Source of the DNA: an uncultured Acidobacteriota bacterium
GTDB lineage: Bacteria; Acidobacteriota; Thermoanaerobaculia; Multivoradales; UBA5704
Assembly: GCA_963700145.1 (NCBI GenBank)
Contig: OY969474.1
Span: forward strand, 512,001-576,000
Length of the DNA stretch: 64,000 nucleotides
Direction of reading: 5' to 3'
The notes under the pieces are model-generated. The model did no database searches, was not told where the DNA came from, and saw only the letters and a program-made list of their open reading frames with translations. The position numbers were made by a program, and so were the translations under genes. Each line of letters opens with the position of its first letter. Position 1 is the first letter of the stretch. Of the stretch, positions 27,636 to 53,635 are shown piece after piece.

Positions 27636-29248
27636 TCACGCCACGAGCGAGATCTGCGTGTCGACCCAACTCTGCAGCTCCGCGCCCGACAGCACCTCAC
27701 GCACCGCCGCGAGGTGCTGGACGAAGGGAATGTCGTCCTCGTAGCGCGGGATGCGGCCGGCGAACTCGTCGTGGAACTTGCGCAGCGGAGCGCTGAACGC
27801 GGCGCCGTCGAGGAAGTGGTAGGCCTGATGGCAGGACGCGGCGAGGATGGTCAGCACCGTCGAGACGTTGCGGGCGAGCTGCAGCGAGCGCCGGGCCGAG
27901 GTCATGCCCATGCTGACGACGTCCTGGTTCTGGCCGTTCGACGGCAGCGACTTGATGGAGGCAGGCGCCGCGAGGTCGAGGTTCTCGGCCGCGATGCTGG
28001 TGGCGAGGTACTGGCCGCCTTCGAACCCGCAGGCAAGACCCGGAGCGCCGTGGCTCAGGAACGGCGGCAGGGGCTTGTTCAGGTGGGGATCGAGAACGCG
28101 GTTGATCTGCCGCTCCGCGAGCACGCCGATTTCGGCGAGAGCCACGTTGAGGTGGTCGCAGGCCATGGCCACGTACTGGCCGTGGAAGTTGGCGCCGTGG
28201 AAGGTGTTGTCCGGGCTGTCGAAGATCAGCGGGTTGTCGTTGCAGGAGTTGACCTCTTCCTCGACGATCCGGCGGCAGAAGTCGAGGGTGTCCAGGACGG
28301 CGCCGAGGACCTGCGGCATGCTGCGGAGCGAATAGGCGTTCTGCAGATAGATGGTGCTGTCGAAGACCTCGCTCGACCCACCGCTCTTGGCGTGGATGGC
28401 GCGCATGATCTCGCCGTGCTCGCGGGTCAGCCGGCTCCCCGCGAGGAGCTGCCGCATCTCACGGGCGATCACGATCTGGCCGGAGTGGTTCTTGAGCACG
28501 TGGCCGCGCGGATCGAAGGGGCGGTCCGAAGCGCGCATGCACTGGACGATGTCGGCGGAGGTCAGGACGGCGAGCTTGAGCAGGCGGTAGGCCTCCACCA
28601 GAGCGAGACACGCGGCGCCGGTCATGGCCGAGGTGCCGTTGACGAGCGCGAGGCCTTCCTTGTACCCCAGCGTCGGCGGGGTGAGCCCGCGCTCCTGGAG
28701 CACCTCGGCCGTCGGACGCACCCGCCCGTCGGTCCGTACCAAGCCGCCGCCGATGACCGACAGCGCCATGTGGGAGAGGGGCGCCAGATCGCCGCTGGCG
28801 CCTAGCGACCCCTGCTGCGGGATCACCGGATGAATCCGTCCGTTGAGGAACTCACGCAGGAGCGTCAGGGCCGCCGGGCTGACGCCGGAGTACCCCTTGA
28901 TCAGGCAGTTCAGGCGCACCGTGAGAATGGCCCGCACCACGTGATCCTCGAGGGGCTCGCCGCCGCCTGCCGCGTGGGTGCGGATCAGGTTCTCCTGCAA
29001 CTGCGTCTTGAACGGCGCCGGGACGATCATGTGGATCATCTCGCCGAACCCGGTGTTGACGCCGTAGATCGGATACCCGGCCTCGCCCCATTCCTGGACG
29101 CGCTCGTGAGCACGGGCGACCGCGGCCAGCTGCGTCGGATCCAGATCGACTGTGTCTCCCTGCACGGCGGCGCGGTAGACGTCATAGATCGTCAGGTCTT
29201 CTCCCGTGAGGCTCACCGTCCCCATCGTTCTCGTCTCGTCGATTACGG

Positions 29249-32688: not shown

Positions 32689-32692
<4 letters not shown>

Positions 32693-35600
32693 CGCAAGAG
32701 CCCCTGGACCTCGTGGTCCAACTCCGACCTGGCCTCGGCCAGGATCTGCGCGATCGCGAGGTCCTCGTCGCGCACGGCGGCGCGCGACTCCTCCATCTGG
32801 CGGGCGGTGGCGGCGATGGTGGGTGCTTCGAGGAAGCGTCGCAGCGGGATCTCGACGCCGTGGCGGCTGCGGAGGCGATTGAGCACCTGGGTGGCGAGCA
32901 GGGAGTGACCGCCGAGATCGAAGAAGCTGTCGTGGCGGCCGGCCCGTTCGATGCGCAGGACGCCCTGCCAGACCTCGGCGACGGTCTGTTCGAGCTCTGT
33001 GCGGGGGGGCTCGAAGCTGTCGGCGGCGAGCGAGTGGAGCTCGGCGGGCTTCTCCAGGGCGTGGCGGTCGATCTTGCCGCTGACCGTGCGCGGCAGCGCC
33101 GCGAGCTGGACGAAGGCGGAGGGGACCATGGGCTCGGGCAGCCGGGCGCGCAGAAACTCCCCGAGCTGCGGCAGGGCGGCGGCGGCGAAGCCGCGCAGCG
33201 GCTTGTTGGTCAGCTCGCGCCGGTGCGCGGCGGGTGGCGGGGCAGGGAGGGCTACGGGCCGGGGGAGGGAGGGGGACTGGCCGGGTGGGCGGCTCTGCAG
33301 CACCAGGTCGAACGAGCCGTTCGCCGCGGCGCCCGTCCACAGCAGCTCGACGCTATAGGGGAGCTGTGCCGTCAGGTCCCAGAGGTTGGCAGGGTCCACC
33401 CAGTCCCGGGGAGGCGGCTGCGCGAGCGCCTGGCGCAGGTCGCCCACGGTCTCGGGGGCACCGTCGCCGTCGAGCCAGGCTGCGGTGCGCAGCGCCTCGG
33501 CCAGGCGGGCGTTGGGCACGCTGGTGAAGCCGAGCGCCTCGGGGCGGCCGTCGGCCAGGTGCCGGCGCAGGCTCTCGAGGTCCATGCCGGCCGCGCGCCA
33601 GTCGCGCCAGGCGACGTCGCGGCGCGCCGGCAGTGCCGGCTCGAGCAGCAGGATGGCGTCGTACTGGAAGCGGTTGATCTCGTTGGGAGAGCGCCCGCCC
33701 TTGGGCAGGATGCGCAGATGAGCGGGGCGCGGCAGCTCGCGCACGACCTCGGCAAACAGCGCCGGGTCGATCACCAGGTCCTTGTCCTGGAGCAGGCTGT
33801 CCTCGACGCGGCGCCGCAGCTCGGCGCGGCCGAGGCGCGGATCGGCGGCCTGCGCGAGCTGCACCGAGGCATGGAAGGCGCGCAGCAGCGGCAGGCTGCG
33901 CACGCCACCGACGAAGACGGCGCCGCCGGGGGCGGTGAGGCGCACCGCCTCGGCCACGGCGTCGCGCAGGTACTGCTCGTCGGGGAAGTGCTGTGTCACC
34001 AGGTTGAAGACCACGGTGTCGAACGAGCCATCGGGCAGATCGCCGAGCTCGTGGGCGGCGCGGCGCTCGACGGCGACGCCCGGCAACGGCGGGACGAGGG
34101 AGGCAAGCCGGCGGCGCAGGAAGCCCACCGCGGTCTCGGAGATGTCCGTTGCGAGATAGCTGGCGCAGTGCGGAGCGACGCGGAACAGCAAGAGCCCCGT
34201 GCCGGCGCCGATCTCGAGCACCCGCCCAGGACGCAGGGCGAGGATGCGTGCCACGGAGTCGTCGATGCTCTCGAGCACCTCCGCCTCGGGCAGCGCGCGG
34301 TGGGTGTAGCTGCTGGTCCAGGAGCGGGTATTGATGTTGTGATCGACCGCCGAGTAGGCCGGATCGAGGGCGTAAATCTCGTCGTAGAGGCTGCGGGTCT
34401 GCGCGATGTAGTCGGTGCGCAGGCCGGCGCCGTCCCCCGGACCGAGCGAGCCCAGCGAGTCCAGTGCCACGTAGGCCACCAGGCGCAAGTCGCCCTGGCC
34501 GTAGTCGTGGGCCGCCACCGCCGCCTCCTCGACCGCCGGATGGCAGCGCAGGGCGGTCTCGATCTCGCCCAGCTCGACGCGGTTGCCGCGCACCTTGACC
34601 TGCTGGTCGCGGCGGCGCAGGAAGACGAGACTGCTGTCGGGAAGCCAGCGTCCCAGGTCGCCGGTGCGGTAGAGCCGCCCGCCGGCGCCGCCCAGCGCGT
34701 CGGGCACGAAGCTCGCCGCCGTCTCGGCCGGCCGGTCGAGATAGCCGTCGGCCAGGTGCGCGCTGCGGATGTGGATCTCGCCCGGCACCCCGCGCGGGGC
34801 CGGTTGACCGTGGCGGTCGAGCAGCACGACGTGCCGGCCCTCGAACGCACGGCCCACCGGAACCGAGGCCTGGCGGCGGTCCGCCACCAGCACCGGATGC
34901 CAGGTGGCGAGCACGGTCTCCGATGGACCGTAGAGGTTGTACAGCCGCGGCGTCGCGGGGAAGCGCTCGAGCCAGGAGGCGGCTAGCTCGCCGCGCACCG
35001 CCTCACCCGCCAGCAGCAGGGCGGCGAGAGCGGGGAAGGGGTGATTGCCATCGTCCTCGCCCAGGCTCTGCAGCAGCTGCTGCGCGAAGCTCGGCACGAC
35101 CTGCAGCAGCGTCACCTGCTCGGCGCAGAGCCAGACCGCCAGGGCCGCCGGGTCGAACCGCAGCGACGGCTCGGCCATGCACAGCGTCGCCCCGAGGCAG
35201 AGCGCGCCGAAGATCTCGCAGTAGGACGCGTCATAGCCGCACGAGGCCCACTGTGCGAAGCGCTGGTGCGGCGCGATGGCGAAGGGCTTGCCCTGGCAGA
35301 GCACGAACTGACTGAAGCTGCGGTGGGACTCGACGATCCCCTTGGGCCGGCCGGTGGAGCCGGAGGTGTAGGCGACGTAGGCGGGCTGGGCCGGGTCGAC
35401 CTCCACCAGCGGCCGGGTCGCGGGCAGCGCATCGAACCCCGCGAGGTCCACGACTGGCCAGTCGCCGCCCTCGGCGAGCGCCGGGTGCTGGCGCAACGAC
35501 GAGGCGTCGGTCAGCAGCGCGCCGGCCGAGGCCTCGGCCAGCACCTGCGCGAGCCGCGCGGTGGGCTGGCGCGGGTCGAGGCAGACAAAGGCGCAGCCGG

Positions 35601-38600
35601 CCTTGAGGACGCCGAGCAGGGCGGCGACCTGCTGCGGCGCGCTCGGCAGCAGCACCGCGACGCGGCGGGCCGCCCCCAGCCCGAGCCCGAGCAGGCCGTG
35701 GGCCACGCGGTTGGCGCGCCGGTCGAGCTCGCCGTAGCTGACCTCCACCCCCTCGCAGCTCACCGCCACCACGTCTACCTGGCGGTCCACCCAGCTCTCG
35801 AAGAGGCGGTGCAGGCAGGTGTCGGGATAGAGCTCCGGCAGCCGGTGGTCCCACTGCGCGAGCAGCTGCCGCCTCTCCTCGGCATCGAGCAGCGCAACGT
35901 CCCAGAGGCGCTGATCTGGGTCCTCCACGATCCCTTCGAGCAGCAGGACGAAATGCCGGAGCATCTGCTCGATGGTCGATCTCTCAAACAGGTCCGCCGC
36001 GTACACCCCCTGGCACTCCAGCTCCTCCTCCCCAGGCGTCTCCCACAGATTGACCGTCAGGTCGAAGGTCGACATCCGATTGTCGATCTCCCAGACGCTC
36101 CAACGGACGCCGCCGGCCCGCTGCTCTCCCTCTTGGGTCGCCGGCTGGTGGAACAGCACTTGGATGAGCGGTTGTCGGCTGAGGTCGCGCTCGGGCCGCA
36201 ACGCCTCCACCAACCGCTCGAATGGCAGGTCCTGGTGGACATAGGCCTCGAAGGTAGTCTTCTTCGTCTGTGCGAGAAGCTCCCCAAAGCGAGGATGCCC
36301 GTCGAGCTGCACGCGCAACACCAGAGTGTTGACGAAGAAGCCGATCAGGGACTCGAGCTCGGGACGGTTGCGGTTGGCGATCGGACATCCCACCGCGAAG
36401 TCGTCCTGATCGGTGTACCGATGCAGCAGCGCCTCGAAGGCGGCGAGCAGCACGATGTAGAGCGTCGCTCCCGCGCGCCGCCCCAGCTCCCTCAGCCGCG
36501 CCACCAGCTCCCCGGACAGCGGCCGCGACAGCCGACCGCCGCGGTAGCTCTGCACCGCCGGCCGCGACCGGTCTGCCACCAGCTCGAGCCCCGGCAGCCC
36601 CGCGAGCTGCCCGCGCCAGTACTCGAGCTGCCTCGCCATTTCCGCCTCGCGCCCGTGCTGCCATTCGGCGAAGTCCGCGTACTGGATCGGCAGTGCCGCG
36701 AGCGGTGACGGCGCGCCCGCCACGAACGCCGCGTAGAGCGCCAGCAACTCGCCGTAGAGCACGCCGATCGACCAGCCGTCGGCCACCACGTGATGCATCG
36801 AAAGGATCAGGACGTGGTCCTCCGGCCCCAGGCGCAGGAGGAGAGAGCGGAAGAGCGGGCCACAGGTCAGAGCGAAGGGACGGCGCACCACGCCTTCGGC
36901 AACGCGGCGTGCCTCCGCCTCGCGCGCCGCACCGGACAGATCCCTCAGCTCCAACCGCGGGAGGCGCAGCGCAGCGTAGGGGGCGATTACCTGAACCGGC
37001 TGCCCGCCGGTTGCGTCGAAGGCGGTGCGTAGCACCTCATGCCGCCGGACGATCTCGTTTAGCGCACGCTCCAACGCCGCCACGTCGAGCGAGCCCCGCA
37101 GCCGCCGCGCCGTGTGCAAGTTGTACACGGCAGAGCCGGGCGCCAACTGGTCTAGGAACCACAGACGGACCTGGGCAAACGACGGGCGGGCGCGCTCTGC
37201 GGCCGGCCAGCGAGGGGCGATCGGCAACAGCGACGGATCCAGACCCTCCCGACGAAGCAGCTCCTCCGCTTGATGCGCGGTGGCGGCGATGGTGGGTGCT
37301 TCGAGGAAGCGTCGCAATGGGATCTCGACGCCGTGGCGGCTGCGGAGGCGATTGAGCACCTGGGTGGCGAGCAGGGAGTGACCGCCGAGGTCGAAGAAGT
37401 TGTCGTGGCGGCCGGCCCGTTCGATGCGCAGGACGCCCTGCCAGACCTCGGCGACGGTCTGTTCGAGCTCTGTGCGGGGGGGCTCGAAGCTGTCGGCGGC
37501 GAGCGAGTGGAGCTCGGCGGGCTTCTCCAGGGCGTGGCGGTCGATCTTGCCGCTGACCGTGCGCGGCAGCGCCGCGAGCTGGACGAAGGCGGAGGGGACC
37601 ATGGGCTCGGGCAGCCGGGCGCGCAGAAACTCCCCGAGCTGCGGCAGGGCGGCGGCGGCGAAGCCGCGCAGCGGCTTGTTGGTCAGCTCGCGCCGGTGCG
37701 CGGCGGGTGGCGGGGCAGGGAGGGCTACGGGCCGGGGGAGGGAGGGGGACTGGCCGGGTGGGCGGCTCTGCAGCACCAGGTCGAACGAGCCGTCCGCCGC
37801 GGCGCCCGTCCACAGCAACTCGACATCGTAGGGGAGCTGCGCCGCCAGGTCCCAGAGGTCGGCGGGATCGACCCAGGCCTGGGGCACCGGCTCGGCGAGC
37901 ATCTCGCGCAGGCCTCCCACGGCCTCGGGGGCACCGTCGCCGTCGAGCCAGGCCGCGGTGCGCAGCGCCTCGGCCAGGCGCGCGTTGGGCACGCCGGTGA
38001 AGCCGAGCGCCTCGGGGCGGTCGTCGACCAGGTGCCGGCGCAGGCTCTCGAGGTCCATGCCGGCGCGCCAATCGCGCCAGGCGACGTCGCGGCGCAGCGG
38101 CTGCGCCGGCTCGAGCAGCAGGATGGCGTCGTACTGGAAGCGGTTGATCTCGTTGGGGGAGTGCCCGCCCTTGGGCAGGACGCGCAGATGAGCGGGGCGC
38201 GACAGCTCGCGCACGACCTCGGCAAACAGCGCCGGGTCGATCACCAGGTCCTTGTCCTGGAGCAGGCTGTCCTCGACGCGGCGCCGCAGCTCGGCGCGGT
38301 CGAGGCGCGGGTCGGCGTGCGCGAGCTGCACCGAGGCGTGGAAGGCCCGCAGCAGCGGCAGGCTGCGCACGCCGCCGACGAAGACGGCGCCACCGGGAGC
38401 GGTAAGGCGCACCGCCTCGGCCACGGCCTCGCGCAGGTACTGCTCGTCGGGGAAGTGCTGCGTCACGAGATTGAAGACCACGGTATCGAACGAGCCGGCG
38501 GGCAGATCGCCGAGCTCGTGGGCGGCGCGGCGCTCGACGGCGACGCCCGGCAGCGGCGTCGCGAGCGCAGCGAGCCGGCGGCGCAGGAAGCCCACCGCGG

Positions 38601-41600
38601 TCTCGGAGATGTCCGTTGCGAGATAGCTGGCGCAGTGCGGAGCGACACGGAACAGCAGCAGCCCGGTGCCGGCGCCGATCTCGAGCACCCGACGGGGGCG
38701 TAGGGCGAGGATGCGCTCGACCGAGTCCTCGATACTCTCGAGCACCTCCGGCTCGGGCAGGGCGCGGTGCGTGTAGCTGCTGGTCCAGGAACGGGTGTTG
38801 ATATTGCCGTCGACCGCGGAATAGGCCGGATCGAGGGCGTAGATCTCGTCGTAGAGGCTGCGGGTCTGCTCGATGTAGTCGGCGCGCAGGCCGGCGCCGT
38901 CCCCCGGACCGAGCGAGCCCAGCGGGTCCAGCGCCACGTAGGCCACCAGACGCAGGTCGCCCTGGCCGTAGTCGTGGGCCGCCACCGCCGCCTCCTCGAC
39001 CGCTGGGTGGCAGCGCAGGGCGGTCTCGATCTCGCCCAGTTCGACGCGGTTGCCGCGCACCTTGACCTGCTGGTCGCGGCGGCGTAGGAAGACGAGACTG
39101 CCGTCGGGAAGCCAGCGTCCCAGGTCGCCGGTACGGTAGAGCCGCCCACCGGCACCGCCCAGCGCGTCGGGCACGAAGCTCGCCGCCGTCTCGGCCGGCC
39201 GGTCGAGATAGCCGTCGGCCAGGTGCGCGCTGCGGATGTGGATCTCGCCCGGCACCCCGCGCGGGGCCGGTTGGCCATGGCGGTCGAGCAGCACGACGTG
39301 CCGGCCCTCGAACGCACGGCCCACCGGAACCGAGGCCTGGCGGCGGTCCGCCACCAGCACCGGATGCCAGGTGGCGAGCACCGTCTCCGACGGACCGTAG
39401 AGGTTGAACAGGCGCGGCGTCGTGGGGAAGCGCTCGCGCCAAGAGATGGCCAGCTCGCCGCGCACTGCCTCGCCCGCCAGCAGCAGGGCGGCGAGAGCCG
39501 GGAAGGGATGACCGCCGCCGCCATCGCCCAGGCTCTGCAGGAGCTGCTGCGCGAAGCTCGGCACGACCTGCAGCAGCGTCACCTGCTCGGCGCAGAGCCA
39601 GACCGCCAGGGCCGCCGGGTCGAACCGCAGCGACGGCTCGGCCATGCACAGCGTCGCCCCGAGGCAGAGCGCGCCGAAGATCTCGCAGTAGGACGCGTCA
39701 TAGCCGCACGAGGCCCACTGTGCGAAGCGCTGGTGCGGCGCGATGGCGAAGGGCTTGCCCTGGCAGAGCACGAACTGACTGAAGCTGCGGTGGGACTCGA
39801 CGATCCCCTTGGGCCGGCCGGTGGAGCCGGAGGTGTAGGCGACGTAGGCGGGCTGGGCCGGGTCGACCTCCACCAGCGGCCGGGTCGCGGGCAGCGCATC
39901 GAACCCCGCGAGGTCCACGACTGGCCAGTCGCCGCCCTCGGCGAGCGCCGGGTGCTGGCGCAACGACGAGGCGTCGGTCAGCAGCGCGCCGGCCGAGGCC
40001 TCGGCCAACACCTGCGCGAGCCGCGCGGTGGGCTGGCGCGGGTCGAGGCAGACGAAGGCGCAGCCGGCCTTGAGGACGCCGAGCAGGGCGGCGACCTGCT
40101 GCGGCGCGCTCGGCAGCAGCACCGCGACGCGGCGGGCCGCCCCCAGCCCGAGCCCGAGCAGGCCGTGGGCCACGCGGTTGGCGCGCCGGTCGAGCTCGCC
40201 GTAGCTGACCTCCACCCCCTTGCAGCTCACCGCCACCACGTCTGCCTGGCGGTCGGCCCAGCTCTCGAAGAGGCGGTGCAGGCAGGTGTCGGGATAGAGC
40301 TCCGGCAGCCGGTGGTCCCACTGCGCGAGCAACTGCCGCGTCTCCTCGGCATCGAGCAGCGCAATCTCCCAGAGGCGCCGCTCCGGGTCCGCGACGATGC
40401 CCTCAAGCAGCAGGACGAAGTGCCGCAGCATCTGCTCGACCGTCGACCCCTCGTAGAGGTCCGCCGCGTACACCCCCTGGCACTCCAGCTCCTCCTCCCC
40501 AGGCGTCTCCCACAGATTGACCGTCAGGTCGAAGGTCGACATCCGATTGTCGATCTCCCAGACGCTCCAGGTGAGGCCCGCGGTTTGCCGTTCCTCCTGC
40601 GAAACGGACTGGAGGTGGAACAGCACCTGGACGAGCGGCTGACGGCTGAGGTCGCGCTCGGGCCGCAACGCCTCCACCAGCCGCTCGAACGGCAGGTCCT
40701 GGTGAGCGTAGGCCTCGAAGGTGGTCTTCTTGACCTCGTCGAGGAGCTCGGCGAACCGCGGGTGCCCCGCGAGCTGCGCGCGCAGGACGAGCGTGTTGAC
40801 GAAGAAGCCGATCAGGGGCTCGAGCTCGGGACGGTTGCGGTTGGCGATTGGACATCCCACCGCGAAGTCGTCCTGATCGGTGTACCGATGCAGCAGCGCC
40901 TCGAAGGCGGCGAGCAGCACGATGTAGAGCGTCGCTCCCGCGCGCCGCCCCAGCTCCCTCAGCCGCGCCACCAGCTCCCCGGACAGCGGCCGCGACAGCC
41001 GGCCGCCGCGGTAGCTCTGCACTGCCGGCCGCGAGCGGTCCGCCACCAGCTCCAGCCCGGGCAGCCCCGCGAGCTGCCCGCGCCAGTAGTCGAGCTGCGC
41101 CGCCATCTCCGCCTCGCGCCCGTGCTGCCACTCGGCGAAGTCCGCGTACTGGATCGGCAGCTCCCGGAGCGGTGACGGCGCGCCCACGACGAACGCCGCG
41201 TAGAGCGCCAGAAGCTCGCCGTACAGCACGCCGATCGACCAGCCGTCGGCCACGACGTGGTGCATTGCCAGGATCAGGACGTGGTCGTCCACCGCCAAGC
41301 GCAGCAGCAGAGGTCGGAACAACGGCCCGCGGCTCAGCGCGAAGGGACGCCGCACCGCGCCTTCGGCGACCCGCCGCGCCTCCGCCTCGCGCGCCCTGGC
41401 CGGGAGCCCCCAGAGGTCGAACCGCGGCAGGCGCAGCGCCGCGTGCGGCGCGACCACCTGCACCGGCTGCCCGCCGGTTGCATCGAACGCGGTGCGCAGG
41501 ACCTCGTGGCGCCGCACCACCTCGTCGAGGGCACGCTCCAACACCGCCACGTCGAGCGAGCCCCGCAGACACCGCGCCGTGTGCAGGTTGTACACCGGCG

Positions 41601-41805
41601 AGCCCGGCGCCAACTGATCCAGGAACCACAGACGGATCTGGGCAAAGGACGCCCGAGCACGCTCCCCGCCCGACTCCCGCCGCGGAATCGGCAGCAGCGA
41701 CGGATCCAGCCCCTCCCGACGCAGCAGCTCCTCCAGCAGGCGGCGCTTGTCGCCGGCAAGAGCGCTCGGGGTCGTCGGCGTTCGGTTGGTGAGCTCGCCG
41801 CGCAT
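32689..41805 (-). CDS. Bimodular NRPS (C-A/MT-T)x2, methyltransferase inserted between A8 and A9
   Basis: ATG 41805 in a TGATG overlap; C HHVVADGWS twice; A code about DACQLALLAK twice; SAM motif VLEIGAGTGLLL twice; T GGHSL twice. Confidence 0.93.
32804..41734. repeat. Tandem direct duplication of a ~4.47 kb NRPS module (copies about 32804-37267 and 37277-41734)
   Basis: Matching anchors offset by 4467-4473 nt (gcggtggcggcgatggtgggtgcttcg at 32804 and 37277; ctcctcc at 37261 and 41728); long near-identical stretches in the A and T regions. Confidence 0.95.
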
Positions 41806-43319
41806 CAAGACAGTTCCCGCACCCAACGACCCGCGCTCGCGCTGAACAGCTCCCGGGCGGCCTCGATGTCGGTGCTCATCACCCGGTCCTCTTCCAGGAA
41901 CGGGATACGCGCGCGCAGCTCGCGGAATACCTCTTCGGTGGCCGGCGAAAGCCGCAGTGGCTCGTTGAGATCGATGGCCTGGCAGGCGGTCATCAGCTCG
42001 ATGCTCATGACGTACTCGCAGTTGTCGAGGATCTGAGCCAGCTTGTGGGCGGAGGTCCCGCCCATGCTGACGTGGTCCTCCTGGAGCTGGCAGGTGGGAA
42101 TCGTGTCGACGCAGGCCGGCGTGGAGAGGACTTTGTTCTCGTTGACCAGCGCGGCCGACGTGTACTGGGAGATCATGAGCCCGGAGTTGATCCCTGGCCG
42201 CTTCACCAGGAAACTCGGTAGGCCGCGCTGTCCCGACAGGAGCTGATACGTCCGCCGCTCGGAAATGCTCGCCAGCTCGCTGATCGCCATGCAGGCAAAG
42301 TCGAGCACCAGCGCCGTCGACTCGCCGTGCAGGTTGCCGCCGAACAGAACCTCGTCCTGCTCGGGGAAGAACAGTGGGTTGTCGGAGACGCTGTTGCACT
42401 CCCGCTCGACCACCTCGCGGGCGAAGCCGACGGCTTGGCGTATGGCGCCGTGGATCTGGGGAATGCAGCGGAAGGAGTAGGGGTCCTGCATCGACTGGTT
42501 GCAGGTCGGCAGCTCGAAGTGGTTGCTTCCCGCCAGCAGCGAGCAGAGGTTGCCCGCCACCACCCGGCGCTCTTCGTGGAGAGAGGTGGTGTGGTAGAGC
42601 GGGTGATAGAAGGTGCGCGAGGCGCTGAACGCTTGGATGCTCAGTGCCGCCAGCAGGTCGGCGGCCTTGGACAGCAGCGCGCCGCGATCCAGGGCGTGGG
42701 CGGCCCAGCCGTTGATGTACTGCACGCCGTTGGTCAGGGCCAGACCCTCCTTGGGCCGCAGGCGCAAAGGCTCCCAACCCATGGCGGGCAGTACGTCACG
42801 GGCATCCTCGACGCGGCCTTGGAAGTGGACTCGCCCCAGTCCCAGCAGCGGCAACGCCATATGGGCCAGGGGCGCCAGATCGCCGCTGGCGCCGACGGTT
42901 CCCTTCTTCGGGATCGCCGGGATCACGCCGCGGTTCCAGTGCTCCAGCAGGCGCTCGACGGTCGGTCGCGAGATGCCGGTGTGACCGCTGCGGAAGGTGA
43001 GGAGCTTCACCAGCAGGACGAGGCGCGAGATCCTCTCGGGCACCAGCTCTCCGACCCCGCAGGCGTGGGACACCACGTGGTTGTACTGCAGCCGCTCCAT
43101 CTCCCCCGCCGGGACCCGGGTCTCGCAGAGCGAGCCGAAGCCGGTGTTGACGCCGTAGAGGTAACGGTCCTCCGCGGCCTTGGCGTCGACGAAGCGGGCA
43201 CCGCCGTCGATGCTGTCGGCGACCTCCGGGGAGAGCCGCAGCTCGGGCGGGTCCTCGGCGAGGCGGCAGAGCTCGTCGATCGAGTAGCGATGCAGATCGA
43301 TGAGATGAGTCGTGGCCAT
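41805..43319 (-). CDS. MIO-dependent ammonia-lyase/aminomutase with histidine ammonia-lyase signature
   Basis: ATG 43319; YGVNTGFGSLC, VSHACG, GTVGASGDL (MIO ASG at 42882-42890), QDPYSFRCIPQ and LQEDHVSMG (QED, HAL type). No other hut genes in the window. Confidence 0.85.
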   Translation of the reverse strand: MATTHLIDLHRYSIDELCRLAEDPPELRLSPEVADSIDGGARFVDAKAAEDRYLYGVNTGFGSLCETRVPAGEMERLQYNHVVSHACGVGELVPERISRLVLLVKLLTFRSGHTGISRPTVERLLEHWNRGVIPAIPKKGTVGASGDLAPLAHMALPLLGLGRVHFQGRVEDARDVLPAMGWEPLRLRPKEGLALTNGVQYINGWAAHALDRGALLSKAADLLAALSIQAFSASRTFYHPLYHTTSLHEERRVVAGNLCSLLAGSNHFELPTCNQSMQDPYSFRCIPQIHGAIRQAVGFAREVVERECNSVSDNPLFFPEQDEVLFGGNLHGESTALVLDFACMAISELASISERRTYQLLSGQRGLPSFLVKRPGINSGLMISQYTSAALVNENKVLSTPACVDTIPTCQLQEDHVSMGGTSAHKLAQILDNCEYVMSIELMTACQAIDLNEPLRLSPATEEVFRELRARIPFLEEDRVMSTDIEAARELFSASAGRWVRELS

Positions 43320-43335
43320 GAGCCCTGAGCTCCGT

Positions 43336-45594
43336 CTACGGCGCACCTTCGCCGCTCGTCACGGGCGCGTCGGCGTTCTCCGCTCGCTGTCCTTCGAGGA
43401 ACGCCTTGACCTCCTCCGCCGACAGTCTGGCGACCAGCTCGGCCAGCCGCTCGACGCGGCCGGCGTCGGCGACCGGTTTGCCCGTCGCCGCGAGGTGCCG
43501 GGCGAGCCGGGCCGGGCTCGGATGCTCGAAGAGACGGTGGGCATTGATCGAGACGTGCAGCCTCTGGCCCAGACGCGAGACGATCTGAGTCGCGAGCAAG
43601 GAGTCCCCGCTCAGCTCGACGAAGTCGTCGTGAACCCCGACCGGCGTGAAGCCGAAAACCTCCTGCCAGGCGGCGACGATCTGCGTCTCCATCTCGTTCC
43701 GAGGTGCCGTGTAGGGAGTCGACAGGGACGGGCGCGGGCGCGCTCCGGGCGCCGCGACGTTCGCCGCCACCGCGGTGGCATCCGGAGCGGAGCGCGCCGC
43801 GGGCGGGGACTGCACCTCGTAGCGCTGGCGCTGGAAAGGATAGGTGGGAAGCGGTATGCGCCGGCGGCGCCGGCCGGCATGGCGGCGCGCGAAATCGACG
43901 TCGGCTCCCGCGACCCAGAGATAGCCGAGGCTGGCGAGGTCCTCCGACGCCTCGGTGTCCGCGGGCAGCGTCGCGACGGCGACCGTGGCCTGGCCGAGGT
44001 CCTGCGCCAGGGCGGGCAGGTGCCGCGCTCTGACTTCGCCGTTCAGCATGCGAGCGGCGTCGTCGAGGACTGCGCCGAGGCCGGCGGTGTCGCGGTATAC
44101 CGCGGCGCGCCGGCGGCCGAAAGCCCGGCGCCCCGTCTGCAGCGTGTACGCGAGGTCCGACGGATCGACCTCCGGGTGAAGCTCCAGATGGCGCCGTAGA
44201 CGTCGCGTCATCTCTTCGAGGGCCGCGTCGTCGCGGGCCGACAGGACCAGGAGGTGCCATGAGTCCACGGCCGTCGCGGCCTGCTGCGCGGGAGCTTCTT
44301 CGAGGACGACGTGGGCGTTGGTGCCGCCGACGCCGAACGAGCTGACGCCGGCGCGGCGGGGAGAGGCGACGGCCGGCCATGCGGAAAGTCTCGCGTTGAC
44401 GAAGAACGGGCTGTCCTCGAGCGAGATGTCCGGGTGGAGGGACTCGAAGTGGAGGACGGGCGGCAGCTCGCGATGCTCGAGAGCGAGCGTGGCCTTGATG
44501 AGGCTGGCGATGCCCGCAGCCTCGTCCAGGTGTCCCACGTTGGGTTTGCTCGAGCTGAGGGCGCAGAACCCTCGCGCCGCGGTGGAAAGGCGGAACGCGC
44601 GGGTCAGGGCGGCGACCTCCATCGCGTCCCCGAGCGGTGTGCCGACGCCGTGCGCCTCGACGTAACCGATCGTCTCCGCGGGGATCCCGGCGGCGCCGAG
44701 CGCCAGGGTGACGACCTCCGCCTGGCCTTCGACGCACGGGGTGGTGAACCCCGGCTTGCCCGCCCCGTCGTTGTTCACGGCCGAGCCGCGGATGACGGCG
44801 CGTATCGGGTCGCCGTCGGCGACGGCGTCGGAGAGGCGCTTGAGGAGGACCAGCCCGGCCCCGTTGCCGTGGACGGTGCCCACCGCCCGCCGGTCGAAGG
44901 GGCGGCAGCGGCCGTCCGGCGAGAGGGAGAGACCCTCGCGGTAGAGATAGCCCCGCGGCTGCGGGAAGAAGATGGAGACACCTCCGGCCAAGGCCATGTC
45001 GCAGTGGTAGTCGAGCAGGCTCTGACACGCGAGGTGAACGGCGACCAGAGAGGTGGAGCAGGCGGACTGGAGGGCGATGCTGGGCCCCCGCAGGTCGAGC
45101 TTGTAGGAGAGGCGCGCCGTCAGGCTGCCGCCGTCCACCAGGGCCAGCGGTCCTTCCAGGAGCTCCAGCTTCTGCTCGAGCGACATCCGGCTCTCCAGGT
45201 AGGTACTCGGGCCTGCGCCGGCGAACACGCCGATGGCGCCCGCGTAAGCGGCGGGGTCGTAGCCGGCGCTCTCGAGCGCTTCCCAGGCGCACTCCAGGAT
45301 CAAGCGGTGCTGGGGATCGAGCATCTCCGCTTGGCGGGGCGGGATGCCGAAGAAGGGGGCGTCGAACAGAAGGGGGTCCTCGAGCACTCCTCCGGCTTTG
45401 ACGTAGTCGCTCCGCGCGAGCAGCTCGCGGCGGACGCCGGCCGCCGCCAGCTCGGAGTCGCTGAAGAAGCTGATGGACTCCACGCCGTCGCGCAGATTCC
45501 GCCAGAACGTCTCGGGGTCCGACGCTCCGGGGAAGCGGCAAGCCATGCCGATGATGGCCACGCCCTCCAGCGCCGCTTCCGAAGCGCTGTTCAT
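43336..45594 (-). CDS. Type I PKS module KS-[AT deleted]-ACP
   Basis: KS SACSTS/HGVGT/GHL; the KS-AT linker runs almost directly into the post-AT linker LGYLW...PLPTYPFQRQRY with no GHSxG; ACP SGDSL. Confidence 0.9.
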   Translation of the reverse strand: MNSASEAALEGVAIIGMACRFPGASDPETFWRNLRDGVESISFFSDSELAAAGVRRELLARSDYVKAGGVLEDPLLFDAPFFGIPPRQAEMLDPQHRLILECAWEALESAGYDPAAYAGAIGVFAGAGPSTYLESRMSLEQKLELLEGPLALVDGGSLTARLSYKLDLRGPSIALQSACSTSLVAVHLACQSLLDYHCDMALAGGVSIFFPQPRGYLYREGLSLSPDGRCRPFDRRAVGTVHGNGAGLVLLKRLSDAVADGDPIRAVIRGSAVNNDGAGKPGFTTPCVEGQAEVVTLALGAAGIPAETIGYVEAHGVGTPLGDAMEVAALTRAFRLSTAARGFCALSSSKPNVGHLDEAAGIASLIKATLALEHRELPPVLHFESLHPDISLEDSPFFVNARLSAWPAVASPRRAGVSSFGVGGTNAHVVLEEAPAQQAATAVDSWHLLVLSARDDAALEEMTRRLRRHLELHPEVDPSDLAYTLQTGRRAFGRRRAAVYRDTAGLGAVLDDAARMLNGEVRARHLPALAQDLGQATVAVATLPADTEASEDLASLGYLWVAGADVDFARRHAGRRRRRIPLPTYPFQRQRYEVQSPPAARSAPDATAVAANVAAPGARPRPSLSTPYTAPRNEMETQIVAAWQEVFGFTPVGVHDDFVELSGDSLLATQIVSRLGQRLHVSINAHRLFEHPSPARLARHLAATGKPVADAGRVERLAELVARLSAEEVKAFLEGQRAENADAPVTSGEGAP

Positions 45595-48500
45595 GCAGGG
45601 CTCCGGGAGAGTTGCGGCGGGCGCCGGCGGAGCCTTGCCTCGCGCTGCCTGGCGGCCCTCGCCAGCGCCGCCGGGAGCTGCGAGCCGGCGAGTGCCCCCG
45701 GCGCCGGCGAAGCCTCCAGATAGGCGGCGAGGGACTCGATCGTCGGTTGCTCCAGCAGCTCCAGCATCGACAGCTTGCGGCCGAGCCTCGCGGCGATGTG
45801 GGACCGCACCCGGGCCAGGAGCAGAGAGTGACCGCCGAGGTCGAAGAAGCTCTCCGCCGTGCTCACCTCCGGCAGCTCCAGCACCTCCATCCAGATGCCG
45901 GCCAGCGCCGTCTCGACGGCGCCCTGCGGCGGCGAGGGGGGGCGCGCGTAGAGCGGGCGTGCACTCGCAACCGGTAGCGCGCGGCGGTCGACCTTGCCGT
46001 TAGGAGTCAGCGGCAAGGCGTCGAGCGGCACGAACAGCGCCGGCAGCATGTAGTGCGGCAACCGCTGCCGGAGGAAGTCCCGTAGCTCGTCGGTGGCCGG
46101 AGGCTCATCACCCTTCTCGGCGACCAGGTAGGCGATCAGGCGCCGACCGCCGCCCGCGTCGTCGGCGGTGACGACCGCGGCCTGGACGACAGCCGGATGC
46201 GCGACCAGGGCGGACTCGATCTCGCCGAGCTCGATGCGGAAGCCGCGGACCTTGACCTGGCGGTCCGTGCGGCCCAAGAACTCCAGCCTGCCGTTGGGCC
46301 GGTAGCGGGCTCGGTCACCGGTGCGATAGAGGCGCGCTCCGGGTTCGCCGCCGAGCGGGTGCGGGACGAACGCCGCCGCCGTCAGATCGCCACGCCCGAG
46401 ATAGCCTCGCGCCAGCCCCTGACCGCCGATGTAGAGCTCGCCCGGCACTCCCAGCGGCGCGAGCGCGAGCCCGTCGTCGAGAACGAGGAGGGAGGTGTTG
46501 GCGACGGGCCCCGCCACCGGCACCGGACCCGCGCCGCGCTCCACGCGGTGGGCCGCCGACCAGATCGTGGTTTCGGTGGGCCCGTAGAGGTTCCAGAGGC
46601 TCTCGCCGCGGCTCGCCAGCGCCTCGGCGAGCTCGCGCGGAAGCGCCTCACCGCCGCACAGCAGCCGCAGGCCTGGCCGGCCCGACCAGCCGGCCTCGAG
46701 GAGCAGGCGCCAGGTGGCGGGCGTACCCTGCAGGACCGTGGCGCCGCTCTCCTCGAGGAGAGCGGCGAGACGGCCGCCGTCGCCGGCTTCGTCGGCGCGG
46801 GCCAGCACCACGCGTGCCCCGACGCTCAGCGGGAGAAAGAGCTCCAGGCCGGCGATGTCGAAGCTCGGCGTCGTCACCGCCAGCAGGACGTCGCCAGGCG
46901 TGAGCCCCGGCCGCTCGGCCATCGAGCCGAGGAAGCTCACCACGGCGCGGTGCACGATCTCGACCCCCTTGGGCGTTCCCGTGGAGGCCGAGGTGTAGAT
47001 CACGTAGGCCCGGTGGTCGGCTCCCGCCCCACCGTCATGGTGGGAGTCGCTCCAGGCCGCCACGGCCGCGGCATCGGAGTCCAGGCAGACCCGGCGGTGT
47101 GCTCCGGGGAGGCCCGCGAGGCGGCTCTCGGTGATCAGGACGGCGTTGCGGGAGTCCACGAGCATGTGCTCGACGCGGTGCCGCGGATACCCGGGATCGA
47201 TGGGGACGTAGGCGCCTCCCGCCTTGAGCACGCCGAGCAGCGCCACGAGCAGCTCGAGGGAGCGCTCAAGGCAGACGCCGACGAGGACGTCCGGCCCGAC
47301 GCCGAGAGACCGTAGATGGCGTGCCAGCCGGTTGGCCCGGCGGTCCAGCTCACCGAAGGTGAGGCACGCGTCGGCACAGGCCGCGGCCACGGCGTCGGGG
47401 CGGCGGCGAGCCTGGTCCTCGAAGAGCTGATGCAGGCAGTCGGGCCGCGGTCCGACCACCGCGGTGTCGCTCCACTCCGTCAGGAGCTGGTGCTGCTCGG
47501 CCTGGCTCAGGAGCGCGAGCTCCTGGATGCTCACCTCCGGCTGGGCGATGGCGCTCTCCAGAAGGCGTTGGTACTGAGCCGCCAGGCGGGCGACGGTCGG
47601 CGGCGCAAAGAGATCGGTGCTGTACTCCCACTCGAGGAGGGTCTGCTCGTCCTCGGCCCGTGGGACACGGCCGATGCGCTGCTCCGAGCGCGGTGTCACG
47701 ATGACGTTGAGGTCGAACTTGGCCGAGCCGTTGTGCGGATATTCGATGCGTCCGCTCAGCTCCCCGAAGTCCAGGTCCGGCATCGGAGCGTCGTGGAAGC
47801 TGAACATCACCTGGAAGATCGGGTTGAAGCTCGCGTGACGCTCCGGCCGCAGCTCCTGGACCAGACGATCGAAGGGAAGGTCCTGGTGGGCGAAGGCCTC
47901 CAAGGTGACCTGGTGGACACGGGCCAGCACCTCACGGAACGAGGGGGTGCCCGACAGATCGACGCGCAAGGCCAGGTTGTTGATGATCATGCCGAGGATG
48001 CGCTCGGTCTCACGCCGCCGCCGTCCGGCGACCACCGTACCCACCACCAGGTCGGCGCTGCCGTTGTAGCGGTGGAGGAGGGCGTCGAACGCCGCCAGGA
48101 GCACCATGAACGGAGTGGCGCCGCAGCGGCGGCCGAGCTCGCGGGCCGACGTGAAGAGACCGGGTCGCATCGGTTCCTTGTGGACGGCGCCGCGGAAGCT
48201 CTGCGCCGCGGGCCGCGGGGCGTCGGAGGGGAGCTCGGTCACTCCCGGGATGCCTGCCAGCTTCCGTTTCCAGTACTCGAGCTGCAGGGCGGCGGCTGCG
48301 CTCTGGAGCCACTCCCGCTGCCAGACGGCGTAGTCGGCGAACTGCAACGGCAGCTCCGGCAGCGGAGAGGCGGAGCCGGAGGAGATGGCGCGATACAGCT
48401 CTTCGATCTCACCGAGCAGCAGAGCCATCGACCAGCCGTCGTGGAGAAAATGGTGCTCGACCTGGACCAGCAGGTGCTCGCGCGGGCCGAGGCGCAGCAG

Positions 48501-50822
48501 GCTCCAGCGCACGAGCGGCAGGCGCGTCACGTCGAAGCCGGAGCGGCAGTCCGCGCGGAGCAATCTCGTTTCCTCGGTCGCGCGCGCGGGCCCGGGCAGG
48601 CCCGCCAGGTCGACCACCGGCAGGCGCGGGAGCCACGGCGAGTGAAGGCGCTGGAAAGGCTGGCCGTCTTCGCTCGGGAACGAGGTGGCGAGGATCTCGT
48701 GCCGCGCCACGACCTCGGCCAGCGCCACGCGCAGCGCCGCCACGTTCAAGCCACCCGAGAGGCGCACCGTCACGTAGGCGTTGTAGGCGACGTTCGCGGG
48801 GGAGACCTGCTCGAGGAACCAGACGCGCTCCTGTGCGGACGACAGCGGCAGCCGGCCGGTGCGGGGAACGCGCCGCAGCGGCTGACCGTCCGCATGCTCC
48901 GGGGACTCCGGTGCCTGCGCTACGCGGGCGGCGAGCTCGGCCACCGTGGAGTTGCCCAGCAGGATCTCGGCGGGCAGCGCGACCGACAGGCGCTCCCGAA
49001 TCCGGCTCGCCACCTGGGCGGCCATCAGGGAGTGACCGCCCAGCTCCAGGAACCCGTCGTGGACGCCGACCGGACCGCAGCCGAGGAGGTCCTCCCAGAT
49101 CCCTGCCACCAGACTCTCCACCGGGGTCTCCGGCGCCAGGTAGGGGCGGCCGAGGTCACCTCGGGTCCGCGTTGGAGCGGGCAGCGCGCTGCGGTCGATC
49201 TTGCCTGCCGGCGTCAGGGGCAGCTCGTCGAGGAAGCGGAAGGACGCGGGCACCATGTAGGGCGGCAGCTCTCCGGCGACGAAAGCGCGCAGGTCGGCGA
49301 GGTCCGGCCGGCGCTCGCGCGCCACCAGATAGGCCACCAGGCGGAGCGAGCCCGGCACGTCCTCCCACCCGACCACCACCGACGCGGCCACGTTCGGGTG
49401 CCGTAGGAGGACCGACTCCACCTCCGCCGGCTCGATCCGGAAGCCGCGGATCTTGAGCTGGCGATCGGCGCGCCCGAGGAACTCGAGGTTGCCGTCGGGG
49501 AGGCGCCGTGCGAGGTCACCGCTGCGGAACAGCCGCGCCCCGGGGACGGTAGCGCGAGGATCGGGCACGAAGCTGGCGGCGGTGAGGTCGGGGCGGCGCA
49601 GGTAGCCCCGAGCGACACCGGCGCCGCCGAGGTAGAGCTCGCCCGTCGCGCCGTCAGGAAGCGGGTGCAGGTCGGCGTCCAGCACGTGCGCCGCGACGTT
49701 GGCGATCGGTCTGCCGATCGGGACGGATCGGCGGAGGCCTTCCGGTTCGCTCCCCTCCTCCTCCTCCCACACCGTGGCGGTGACCGTGCCCTCGGTGAGA
49801 CCGTAGGCGTTGAGCCAGCGGACGCGGTGCCCCACCGTGCGGCGCCAGAGCTCGAGCTGCTGCGGCAGCACGCGCTCGCTCCCCACGACGACCAGGCGCA
49901 GGCTCTCGGGCCAGGGCAGGGCGGTGCGCCCGATTTCCGAGGCCCAGCCGTGCCAGTACGGGGCAGGCAGGTTGAGGACGGTGAGCGCCTGCGCGCGGGC
50001 AAGCTCCACCATCGCCGCCACGGAAGTCGCCGCCGCGGCGGAGCGCAGTACGACGGCGCTGCCGCTCAGCCAGGAGGGGAAAATCTCTTCCACGGAGACG
50101 TCGAAGCCGATGGCGGCGAACTGAAGGACCCGATCGGCCGGAGAGAGGCAGTATCGGGTAGCGATGGCGTAGCTCAGGTTGAGGAGAGCCCGGTGGGGCA
50201 CCGCGACGCCTTTGGGCACGCCGGTGGAACCGGACGTGAAGATGACGTAGGCGAGGTTCGATGGGCCGGCACCCCCACTGGGCAAGCTGTCCGGACGTCC
50301 CGCGATCGCCTCCCGGTCCCAGTCGACGCGGACCAGAGGCGGCCCGCCCGTGCCGCCGGCCCACGTCGAGGCCGTGACGACCGCCGCCGGCTTCGCCTCG
50401 TCCAGGATCGCCGCGAGGCGTCGCGGCGGCATGGCAGGGTCCAGCGGCAGGTATGCCGCGCCCGCCGCGAGGATGCCGAGGATCGCGACGAAGAGCTGCG
50501 GCGAGGGAGGGAGGCAAACTCCGACCAAGGTCTCGGGGCCCACGCCGAGTGTTTGCAGATGGTGGGCCAGACGATTGGCGCGGCACACCAGCTCCGCATA
50601 GCTCAGGTGATGGTCGTCGCAGACCAGCGCGACGGCGTCGCCCGCCTCGGCCGCTAGAGCGGCGATGAGCTCGTGCACGCACCGGTCCGCAGGGACAGGG
50701 GTTGCCGGACCGTTCGAGAGGTTGGCCTGGTAATGGCCGGCACGCCGGGAAGCGGTCCGATGCTCGCCGCTGGGAAGTTGGGAGCTACCTTCCTCGAGCG
50801 TTCGCGAGCCATCTTGTTCCAC
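45591..50822 (-). CDS. Initiating NRPS A(Arg/basic-like)-T-C(ureido-forming type)-A(Gly)-T
   Basis: Start uncertain (GTG 50822 with AGGGGG upstream; frame open to 50981). A1 code about DVENVGAVTK; T GGHS; C EHHFLHDG; A2 code DILQLGLIWK; T GGHS. Confidence 0.9.
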   Translation of the reverse strand: MEQDGSRTLEEGSSQLPSGEHRTASRRAGHYQANLSNGPATPVPADRCVHELIAALAAEAGDAVALVCDDHHLSYAELVCRANRLAHHLQTLGVGPETLVGVCLPPSPQLFVAILGILAAGAAYLPLDPAMPPRRLAAILDEAKPAAVVTASTWAGGTGGPPLVRVDWDREAIAGRPDSLPSGGAGPSNLAYVIFTSGSTGVPKGVAVPHRALLNLSYAIATRYCLSPADRVLQFAAIGFDVSVEEIFPSWLSGSAVVLRSAAAATSVAAMVELARAQALTVLNLPAPYWHGWASEIGRTALPWPESLRLVVVGSERVLPQQLELWRRTVGHRVRWLNAYGLTEGTVTATVWEEEEGSEPEGLRRSVPIGRPIANVAAHVLDADLHPLPDGATGELYLGGAGVARGYLRRPDLTAASFVPDPRATVPGARLFRSGDLARRLPDGNLEFLGRADRQLKIRGFRIEPAEVESVLLRHPNVAASVVVGWEDVPGSLRLVAYLVARERRPDLADLRAFVAGELPPYMVPASFRFLDELPLTPAGKIDRSALPAPTRTRGDLGRPYLAPETPVESLVAGIWEDLLGCGPVGVHDGFLELGGHSLMAAQVASRIRERLSVALPAEILLGNSTVAELAARVAQAPESPEHADGQPLRRVPRTGRLPLSSAQERVWFLEQVSPANVAYNAYVTVRLSGGLNVAALRVALAEVVARHEILATSFPSEDGQPFQRLHSPWLPRLPVVDLAGLPGPARATEETRLLRADCRSGFDVTRLPLVRWSLLRLGPREHLLVQVEHHFLHDGWSMALLLGEIEELYRAISSGSASPLPELPLQFADYAVWQREWLQSAAAALQLEYWKRKLAGIPGVTELPSDAPRPAAQSFRGAVHKEPMRPGLFTSARELGRRCGATPFMVLLAAFDALLHRYNGSADLVVGTVVAGRRRRETERILGMIINNLALRVDLSGTPSFREVLARVHQVTLEAFAHQDLPFDRLVQELRPERHASFNPIFQVMFSFHDAPMPDLDFGELSGRIEYPHNGSAKFDLNVIVTPRSEQRIGRVPRAEDEQTLLEWEYSTDLFAPPTVARLAAQYQRLLESAIAQPEVSIQELALLSQAEQHQLLTEWSDTAVVGPRPDCLHQLFEDQARRRPDAVAAACADACLTFGELDRRANRLARHLRSLGVGPDVLVGVCLERSLELLVALLGVLKAGGAYVPIDPGYPRHRVEHMLVDSRNAVLITESRLAGLPGAHRRVCLDSDAAAVAAWSDSHHDGGAGADHRAYVIYTSASTGTPKGVEIVHRAVVSFLGSMAERPGLTPGDVLLAVTTPSFDIAGLELFLPLSVGARVVLARADEAGDGGRLAALLEESGATVLQGTPATWRLLLEAGWSGRPGLRLLCGGEALPRELAEALASRGESLWNLYGPTETTIWSAAHRVERGAGPVPVAGPVANTSLLVLDDGLALAPLGVPGELYIGGQGLARGYLGRGDLTAAAFVPHPLGGEPGARLYRTGDRARYRPNGRLEFLGRTDRQVKVRGFRIELGEIESALVAHPAVVQAAVVTADDAGGGRRLIAYLVAEKGDEPPATDELRDFLRQRLPHYMLPALFVPLDALPLTPNGKVDRRALPVASARPLYARPPSPPQGAVETALAGIWMEVLELPEVSTAESFFDLGGHSLLLARVRSHIAARLGRKLSMLELLEQPTIESLAAYLEASPAPGALAGSQLPAALARAARQREARLRRRPPQLSRSPA

Positions 50823-53625: not shown

Positions 53626-53635
53626 GGAGGCCGCG

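Follow-up and report, generated by a model that had tools for sequence, protein, structure and literature searches.

The window analysed here is a 64-kb stretch from the genome of an uncultured Acidobacteriota bacterium (positions 512001-576000 of a 5.46-Mb genome in a single contig; G+C 71%). Between window positions 4267 and 50981, its minus strand carries one tightly packed nine-gene operon for nonribosomal peptide synthesis, in which the gene HAL1 encodes an enzyme of the 4-methylideneimidazole-5-one (MIO) family derived from the histidine ammonia-lyase (HAL) lineage. This enzyme is considered here as a candidate histidine 2,3-aminomutase that would deliver beta-histidine to the nonribosomal peptide synthetase (NRPS) encoded directly downstream, NRPS_B. 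The operon is composed as follows, with domains denoted as A (adenylation), C (condensation), T (thiolation), MT (methyltransferase), E (epimerization), KS (ketosynthase), AT (acyltransferase), ACP (acyl carrier protein), and TE (thioesterase), and the specificity codes of A domains in brackets:

45591-50981, minus strand: NRPS_A, A(DVENVGAVTK)-T-C-A(Gly code)-T, the operon's first synthetase
43336-45594, minus strand: KS-ACP gene, KS-linker-ACP without AT, directly upstream of HAL1
41805-43319, minus strand: HAL1, MIO enzyme of 504 aa, HAL-derived, candidate histidine 2,3-aminomutase
32689-41805, minus strand: NRPS_B, C-A(DACQLALLAK)-MT-T-C-A(DACQLALLAK)-MT-T, 3038 aa
29249-32692, minus strand: NRPS_B2, C-A(DPAQLALVAK)-T, presumed beta-Tyr module
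27636-29225, minus strand: MIO2, second MIO enzyme, 529 aa, tyrosine 2,3-aminomutase homologue
14964-27626, minus strand: NRPS_C, C-A(Ala code)-T-KS-AT-ACP-aminotransferase-C-A(Gly-like)-T-C/E
11694-14957, minus strand: NRPS_D, C-A(Gly-like)-T
4267-11697, minus strand: NRPS_E, C-A-T-(E)-C-T-TE, the operon's last gene

Several of these genes overlap, with ATGA at the NRPS_A/KS-ACP and NRPS_B/NRPS_B2 junctions, TGATG at HAL1/NRPS_B, and GTGA at NRPS_D/NRPS_E. The original prediction, made from the DNA letters of the window, had the HAL1 stop codon overlapping the start of the bimodular synthetase, and this is the case: the TGA of HAL1 (41807-41805) and the in-frame ATG of NRPS_B (41805-41803) have 1 nt (A) in common. 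The open reading frame of HAL1 spans 41805-43346 (minus strand) with a likely ATG at 43319, and its translation contains the motifs GASGDL, NHVVSH, and QLQEDHVSM. The intact ASG, the QEDHVSM and NHVVSH motifs, and the NQD-type motif of MIO2 had all been read correctly. A full-length match to Pfam Lyase_aromatic (PF00221; 554.8 bits, profile positions 2-465 of 466) and the Ala-Ser-Gly triad place HAL1 in the MIO ammonia-lyase/aminomutase superfamily.

Within this superfamily, the best matches of HAL1 in the PDB are true HALs (348 bits), with the tyrosine aminomutase (TAM) SgcC4 at 258 bits. HAL1 scores 557.5 against the HAL subfamily model NF006871, above the cut-off of 524, and 341.3 bits against the TAM model TIGR03832, well under the cut-off of 501; it reads QEDH and is devoid of the NQD(V/I) motif. 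Against the hutH equivalog TIGR01225 it reaches 535.2 bits, under the cut-off of 539.15, compared with 697 for the HutH of its own genome. HAL1 thus departs from catabolic HutH in three respects, i.e. equivalog score, Phe329, and hut linkage; automatic pipelines annotate it as 'histidine ammonia-lyase'. It is distinct from the housekeeping lyase, since the genome encodes its own HutH (44% identical to HAL1) at another site, as well as HutU and HutI. A genome-wide hut search, suggested together with the original prediction, located these genes scattered outside the window, each alone (genome positions 302177-303937 for HutU, 1344422-1345942 for HutH, and about 3722827 for HutI). No hut genes were found within the 64-kb window, in line with the reported lack of hutU, hutI, and hutG there. 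HAL1 is 60-72% identical to proteins from many phyla, its closest relative being a protein from an Acidobacteriota metagenome-assembled genome.

A set of 74 MIO proteins was placed in a maximum-likelihood tree (quick search of IQ-TREE; ten rows omitted as duplicates of genes present). In it, HAL1 joins 51 relatives from genomes and two named myxobacterial proteins in a single 54-row clade (SH-aLRT 100), whose stem measures 1.18 changes per site. The phylogeny that had been proposed as a check accordingly separates the HAL1 clade from both canonical HALs and TAMs: it branches beside the canonical HALs of the same genomes, to which its members are about 39-44% identical, and far from the TAMs. 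A canonical-type HAL is also present in 14 of the 15 other clade-bearing genomes (595-655 Pfam bits vs 519-573 for the clade member), and 11 of the 15 harbor no third MIO gene, hence no TAM. In the Mycolicibacterium neoaurum genome (G005; loci L040 and L062), the clade member is the sole MIO-family gene found, and no canonical HAL was detected.

The clade is rare and patchy. Its hosts belong to the Acidobacteriota, Chloroflexota, Gemmatimonadota, Myxococcota, Actinomycetota, Pseudomonadota, and others, and the Stigmatella protein P0031 falls inside it. A library of 1.84 billion representatives contained one full-length representative of the clade (668 bits, 62% identity), the next protein reaching 460 bits and 46%. 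At an identity of at least 50%, members were encountered in 2 of 401 sampled genomes of the phylum of the window (own genome counted; two of those sampled, G179 and G307, are unpublished), and among 61 sampled genomes of the family of G091, searched for the Stigmatella locus, a member was present only in G091 itself. The sole other member in the 401 genomes (L171, on G279:C141) adjoins a C-A-T-C gene with the A code DAAQLAL..K, carrying Ala at position 239.

The gene neighborhoods of the clade differ sharply from those of canonical HALs. Context matches were scored by tblastn (E <= 1e-10, 10-kb radius), and a metagenome scan seeded with MIO2 yielded a control of 69 canonical-type HAL loci (closer to the HutH of the window's genome than to HAL1) and nine TAM-like loci. 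An NRPS gene lies within 10 kb in 50 of the 51 loci of clade relatives, and urocanase in none (0/51); the single locus without an NRPS match, L034, is on a contig that ends just past the gene. For the canonical-type HAL loci the picture is reversed, with NRPS genes in 0/69 and urocanase in 33/69, the latter a lower bound owing to many short contigs. The TAM-like loci resemble the clade (NRPS 7/9, urocanase 0/9). Homologues located mainly in hut operons, which would have spoken against the predicted role, are hence not what was found. On the evidence of tree and gene context, HAL1 belongs to a separate branch of the HAL lineage that has spread horizontally and was recruited to nonribosomal peptide synthesis.

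The clade is also linked to one particular kind of A domain. From the 51 loci and the window, 148 A domains were extracted, of which 134 were placed in a FastTree phylogeny and 14 short ones dropped. A single family accounts for the A domain closest to the clade gene in 47 of the 51 loci. It is encoded without exception on the strand of that gene, the median distance being 581 bp, and within 1.6 kb in 45 of the 47, so that the suggested search for co-occurrence with DACQLALLAK-type A domains gave a clear positive result. In two of the remaining loci (L005, L034) the contigs end right past the gene. The family forms one FastTree clade of 49 rows (support 92) that includes the TAM-adjacent A domain of the window, with the remaining 85 domains (Gly, Ala, Ser/Thr-like, Asp-like etc.) placed outside it. 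The partner codes comprise DACQLALLAK and close variants (24 loci), DVCQ[LM]V[VM]AAK (11), DA[CS]EMSEL[LA]K (8), and the rarer DGLH.., DAPH.., DATL.., and DATE.. (together 5 loci). None of six partner code strings gave a match in a full-text literature search. Since the MIO subclades go together with the code types DACQ.., DVCQ.., and DACE.., the comparison speaks for the MIO enzyme and its partner A domain being a functional pair that diversified together.

As to the substrate of this family, the TAM-adjacent A domains of two metagenome loci (L095, L098) carry the code DAAQLALLAK, and by kinship with these and with the TAM-adjacent domain of the window the partner A domains are presumed to be of the beta-aryl-beta-amino-acid type. 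Asp235 is kept in 47/47 of them, and 18 of the 47, together with both in the window, directly follow a C domain. In elongation, the acceptor of a C domain must carry an amine, which urocanate lacks. Urocanate is therefore unfit as a substrate of the A domains in the window and of the 18 elongation A domains, as had been argued for the window from its Asp235-keeping C-A-T modules. In the 11 genomes without any other non-canonical MIO gene, the partner substrate cannot come from a TAM either. The acidic code DACEMSELLK would suit a basic side chain. That the clade nearly always stands beside one kind of A domain suggests beta-histidine as its product.

Two ideas on the A domains were dropped. 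A role of Cys239 as a strict marker of imidazole specificity was abandoned, as the clade member in G279 pairs with DAAQLAL..K. Delivery of urocanate from HAL1 to the operon's first A domain (about DVENVGAVTK) was likewise discarded: this domain keeps Asp235, and its type occurs in only two other loci (L005, L039), i.e. it is not a conserved partner.

The active site combines conservation with change (residues in Pseudomonas putida HAL numbering; 54 clade members, 10 canonical HALs, and 5 TAMs compared). HAL1 has Y53, H83, N195, Q277, Y280, R283, and E414, which we take to be the histidine-binding and catalytic residues of HAL. The mutants described in the available part of PMC11432326 agree with this list. 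Invariant in 54/54 clade members are Y53, S82, H83, the ASG triad, N195, Y280, R283, E414, and D415; H416 is kept in 53/54, and Q277 is replaced by E in 11/54. At the same time, V316F, F329L, P333S, A411Q, and N412L occur in 54/54 clade members and in 0/10 canonical HALs, L79H (51/54) and S410C (53/54) are likewise absent from the canonical HALs, and four more clade-invariant changes sit elsewhere in the protein. As aligned, the clade keeps the histidine-binding residues and changes the surroundings of the MIO group. Position 329 is Leu throughout the clade (54/54) and Phe in 10/10 canonical HALs and 5/5 TAMs. Both F329 and the segment 410-414 are part of the known HAL active site, and F329A lowers the lyase activity of P. 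putida HAL 100- to 2200-fold, F329G prevents MIO formation in Pseudomonas HAL, and E411D inactivates Geobacillus HAL (PMC11432326, available part). Since F329L is invariant and F329A cripples the P. putida lyase, the lyase chemistry of the clade is likely altered.

The motifs by which the original prediction told HALs from aminomutases hold in part. QEDH vs NQDV (E414/H416) does discriminate, as Q414 and either V416 or I416 occur in all 5 TAMs, whereas the S-H pair does not: it is found in 4/5 TAMs as well, with MIO2 of the window having T-H.

NRPS_B, the presumed recipient of the HAL1 product, consists of two modules with the following domains:

40327-41649, minus strand: C domain of module 1, HHVVADG intact
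37426-40314, minus strand: A domain of module 1, MT-interrupted, MT core at about 38365-38739
37276-37461, minus strand: T domain of module 1, GGHSL
35860-37182, minus strand: C domain of module 2, HHVVADG intact
32953-35847, minus strand: A domain of module 2, with MT, core at about 33898-34272
32803-32988, minus strand: T domain of module 2

These features (HHxxxDG in C, core motifs and Lys517 in A, an MT late in A, and the GGxS serine in T) characterize both as C-A-MT-T elongation modules. For the MT-bearing part of the A domain, the match to PDB 5WMM, an interrupted A domain that we take to be a backbone N-methylating one, is full-length (234.8 bits). The two modules are nearly identical at the amino-acid level (A cores 97%, T 98-100%, MT 94%, C 87%), a sign of recent tandem duplication or of gene conversion. 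Specificity positions were mapped via the conserved A4, A5, and A10 motifs, without alignment to 1AMU, and are presumably those of the GrsA numbering. The code of both A domains is DACQLALLAK, and they differ from that of NRPS_B2, the gene directly upstream of MIO2 (DPAQLALVAK), at positions 236, 239, and 330, exactly as had been claimed. The NRPS_B2 code resembles the SgcC1 code, and its beta-Tyr type is presumed from this likeness and from context.

A route can be proposed in which HAL1 would bind L-histidine with the ancestral HAL residues and remove the alpha-amine via the MIO group, giving an amino-MIO adduct and bound urocanate. Instead of releasing urocanate and ammonia, the enzyme would re-add the amine at C3 and thereby form beta-histidine. 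The two C-A-MT-T modules, translationally coupled downstream of HAL1, would activate this compound via their beta-aryl-type A domains, N-methylate its beta-amine, and add two such residues to the chain arriving from NRPS_A and the KS-ACP protein. NRPS_B2 would then add beta-tyrosine, the presumed product of MIO2, if the order of incorporation follows that of the genes. We consider it probable, with moderate confidence, that HAL1 is such a HAL-derived MIO histidine 2,3-aminomutase, whose beta-histidine is here built in twice and N-methylated. The balance tips only slightly in favor of the wider proposal, by which the whole clade would be histidine 2,3-aminomutases spread by transfer with NRPS clusters, and beta-histidine a widespread hidden unit with its own A-domain family; the product of the window would then contain two consecutive N-methyl-beta-histidines, a beta-tyrosine, and a beta-amino residue derived from the PKS (polyketide synthase)-aminotransferase module. 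The predicted coupling of a HAL-like enzyme to a beta-type A domain is supported by the comparison, whereas the step to beta-histidine is still an inference.

Several observations weigh against this proposal, most of them in favor of a dedicated HAL of secondary metabolism that makes urocanate, which the DACQLALLAK-type A domain would load as an acyl unit. All residues for HAL chemistry are present, in 54/54 members as far as the catalytic ones are concerned, so that plain urocanate formation is possible, and HAL1 passes NF006871. No clade-specific change corresponds to a known mutase signature, F329 being kept in the TAMs themselves, and sequence alone therefore cannot separate a lyase from a mutase. 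At 29 of the 47 loci the assembly line begins with the partner A domain, a position in which no amine is required, and in L028 and L037 (2/51), both with ample flanks, there is no partner-family A domain within reach. Urocanate is moreover a proven A-domain-loaded starter in imidacin biosynthesis, and recombinant Stigmatella HAL yields it in vitro (PMC11301661, available part); the Stigmatella protein P0031 belongs to the clade. A urocanate-forming HAL1 is nonetheless judged unlikely. In the tandem of the window, with its intact C domains, and in 18 of the 47 loci the A domain stands after a C domain and an amine nucleophile is needed; all 47 partner A domains keep Asp235 and group with TAM-linked rather than acid-activating A domains. 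The canonical HAL already present in the genomes could supply urocanate, and F329L is invariant at a residue whose replacement cripples the lyase (PMC11432326, available part).

The partner code, in turn, differs from the TAM-linked DAAQLALLAK only at position 239, and the clade member in G279 adjoins DAAQLAL..K; the code alone therefore does not point to an imidazole side chain. This would fit an MIO aminomutase or lyase acting on another substrate, e.g. tyrosine converted to the other beta-Tyr enantiomer, a modified histidine, or another heteroaryl-alanine, and so would the seven changes around the active site, by which the pocket may be re-shaped, and the S-H pair common to TAMs. Such an activity appears quite doubtful, as the clade has the HAL-type E414 (54/54) and H416 (53/54) where all 5 TAMs have Q414 and V/I416, the window already holds a bona fide TAM, and the actinomycete code DACEMSELLK with its two acidic residues fits a basic side chain; the loss of activity in Geobacillus HAL E411D ties the HAL-type Glu to histidine turnover (PMC11432326, available part). 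That HAL1 is simply a redundant catabolic HutH copy placed in the cluster by chance is highly improbable. The automatic annotation agrees with it, and the scattered hut genes make context weak evidence in this genome taken by itself, but the 1-nt overlap with NRPS_B, the mere 44% identity to its own HutH, and the score under the hutH equivalog cut-off contradict it, and the context statistics (50/51 relatives NRPS-linked vs 0/69 canonical HALs) exclude it.

Around the histidine-related genes, the operon shows further features. Its remaining A domains are Gly-like (three), Ala-like, and two with codes without assignment. The KS-AT-ACP-aminotransferase module of NRPS_C (18627-24326, minus strand) should, by its domain order, turn the chain into a further beta-amino residue, and the product of the cluster may contain four beta-amino units. 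For the KS-ACP gene (43336-45594) there is no AT domain, and no free-standing AT was seen within the window. In the last module of NRPS_E (C-T-TE), only about 120 residues separate C and T, hence it is without an A domain. Just upstream of the operon lies an open frame of 742 aa (51417-53645, minus strand) with coding-like codon bias and no Pfam match, and the cluster flank (53636-54100, plus strand, and 54662-57777, minus strand) contains an IS110-type transposase N-terminal domain, an S9 prolyl-oligopeptidase-family gene, and a CrtC-like lipocalin gene.

The loci of the relatives show several architectures. Chloroflexota loci (L007-L009, L011, L012, L014, L016, L027) harbor a small conserved cassette found across phyla, in which the clade MIO gene is followed by A(DACQLALLAK)-T-C-A(VAWLTSLNAK)-T and C-A-T genes, and similar cassettes occur in L015, L017, L018, L021, L023, L029, and L033. 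The VAWLTSLNAK domain lacks Asp235 and therefore probably loads a hydroxy or keto acid. Upstream of the MIO gene in L007 lie sugar-transport genes, so that the MIO gene appears to open the cluster. In seven actinomycete loci (L030-L032, L035, L036, L042, L054) the MIO gene is situated between C-A(DVCQ..) and C-A-T-KS-AT-ACP genes, with a BtrH_N/peptidase-C39-like protein and acyl-CoA dehydrogenases encoded nearby and, on the opposite strand, A domains with DMIGFGCIVK and an Ala code. The subclade with the greatest divergence (52-55% identity to HAL1) belongs to a different type of cluster, represented in Nonomuraea, Streptosporangium, Sphaerisporangium, and Amycolatopsis (L046, L048-L053, L055). 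L046 comprises an MFS transporter, two methyltransferases, A(DACEMSELLK)-T-C, the MIO gene, two TauD-type dioxygenases, a stand-alone Asp/Asn-like A domain, a carbamoyltransferase, and a free C domain. The paper on the Amycolatopsis strain of L049 (PMC11446937) contains no mention of aminomutase, ammonia-lyase, histidine, or imidazole.

To our knowledge, beta-histidine is a building block without known natural occurrence to date, and a literature search, with subscription papers and supplements outside its range, found no publications on a histidine aminomutase or on beta-histidine as a natural product unit; on these subjects and on HALs linked to NRPSs, it yielded only the imidacin paper and a review of 2022. 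If the proposal is true, nonribosomal peptide synthesis would gain a novel enzyme activity and a further beta-amino acid, one that is basic and binds metals, and aminomutase chemistry would have had a second, independent origin in the MIO family, informing on the switch from lyase to mutase. All proteins of the clade are at present called 'histidine ammonia-lyase' by automatic annotation. The changes F329L, V316F, P333S, A411Q, and N412L with E414 kept, together with the code of the partner A domain, provide a signature for genome mining, and the 54 sequences of the clade, several from cultured strains such as those of Polyangium, Lentzea, and Chromobacterium vaccinii (loci L013, L031, and L037), are ready for expression and assay.

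Among known systems, catabolic HutH (P. putida HAL, PDB 1B8F/1GKM) is like HAL1 in fold family, MIO motif, Y53, S82-H83, N195, Y280, R283, and E414. The HAL1 clade is unlike it in its long separate stem and in L79H/V316F/F329L/P333S/S410C/A411Q/N412L, and it is never found beside urocanase and nearly always beside NRPS genes. Imidacin from Stigmatella aurantiaca is the only precedent found in which, as in the model for HAL1, a HAL product enters an assembly line via an A domain that loads urocanate as PKS starter. In that system the starter is amine-free and the HAL gene reportedly lies at a great distance from the cluster, whereas HAL1 lies inside its operon and its A domains belong to C-A-MT-T elongation modules; the main text of the report, as far as available, does not name the assayed HAL (PMC11301661).

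A closer parallel is offered by the MIO aminomutases. The aminomutases SgcC4, CmdF, and AdmH, known to act on phenylalanine and tyrosine-type substrates, are paired with the beta-amino-acid A domains SgcC1, CmdD, and AdmJ, respectively. The window itself contains a pair of this kind, MIO2/NRPS_B2, two genes from HAL1. MIO2 has the motifs IRTHAAG and NGQNQDVVSM, scores 516.6 against TIGR03832 (above the cut-off of 501), and is 61% identical to the Chondromyces crocatus TAM (CmdF) and 64% to the Swiss-Prot entry of the Myxococcus fulvus TAM; when 81 genomes from the G002 family were queried with the Chondromyces TAM, the only match was a 58% relative. As in the Tyr/Phe aminomutase systems, the HAL1 gene stands beside an Asp235-keeping A domain of the same family. 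HAL1 itself comes from the HAL lineage and not from the TAM or phenylalanine aminomutase lineage, with E414/H416 instead of Q/V and L instead of F at 329. We infer that HAL1 works like SgcC4, CmdF, and AdmH together with dedicated A domains, outside their lineage. Relative to the known pairs of MIO aminomutase and beta-amino-acid A domain, the comparison suggests three novelties, namely an independent origin, a new substrate, and a residue signature.

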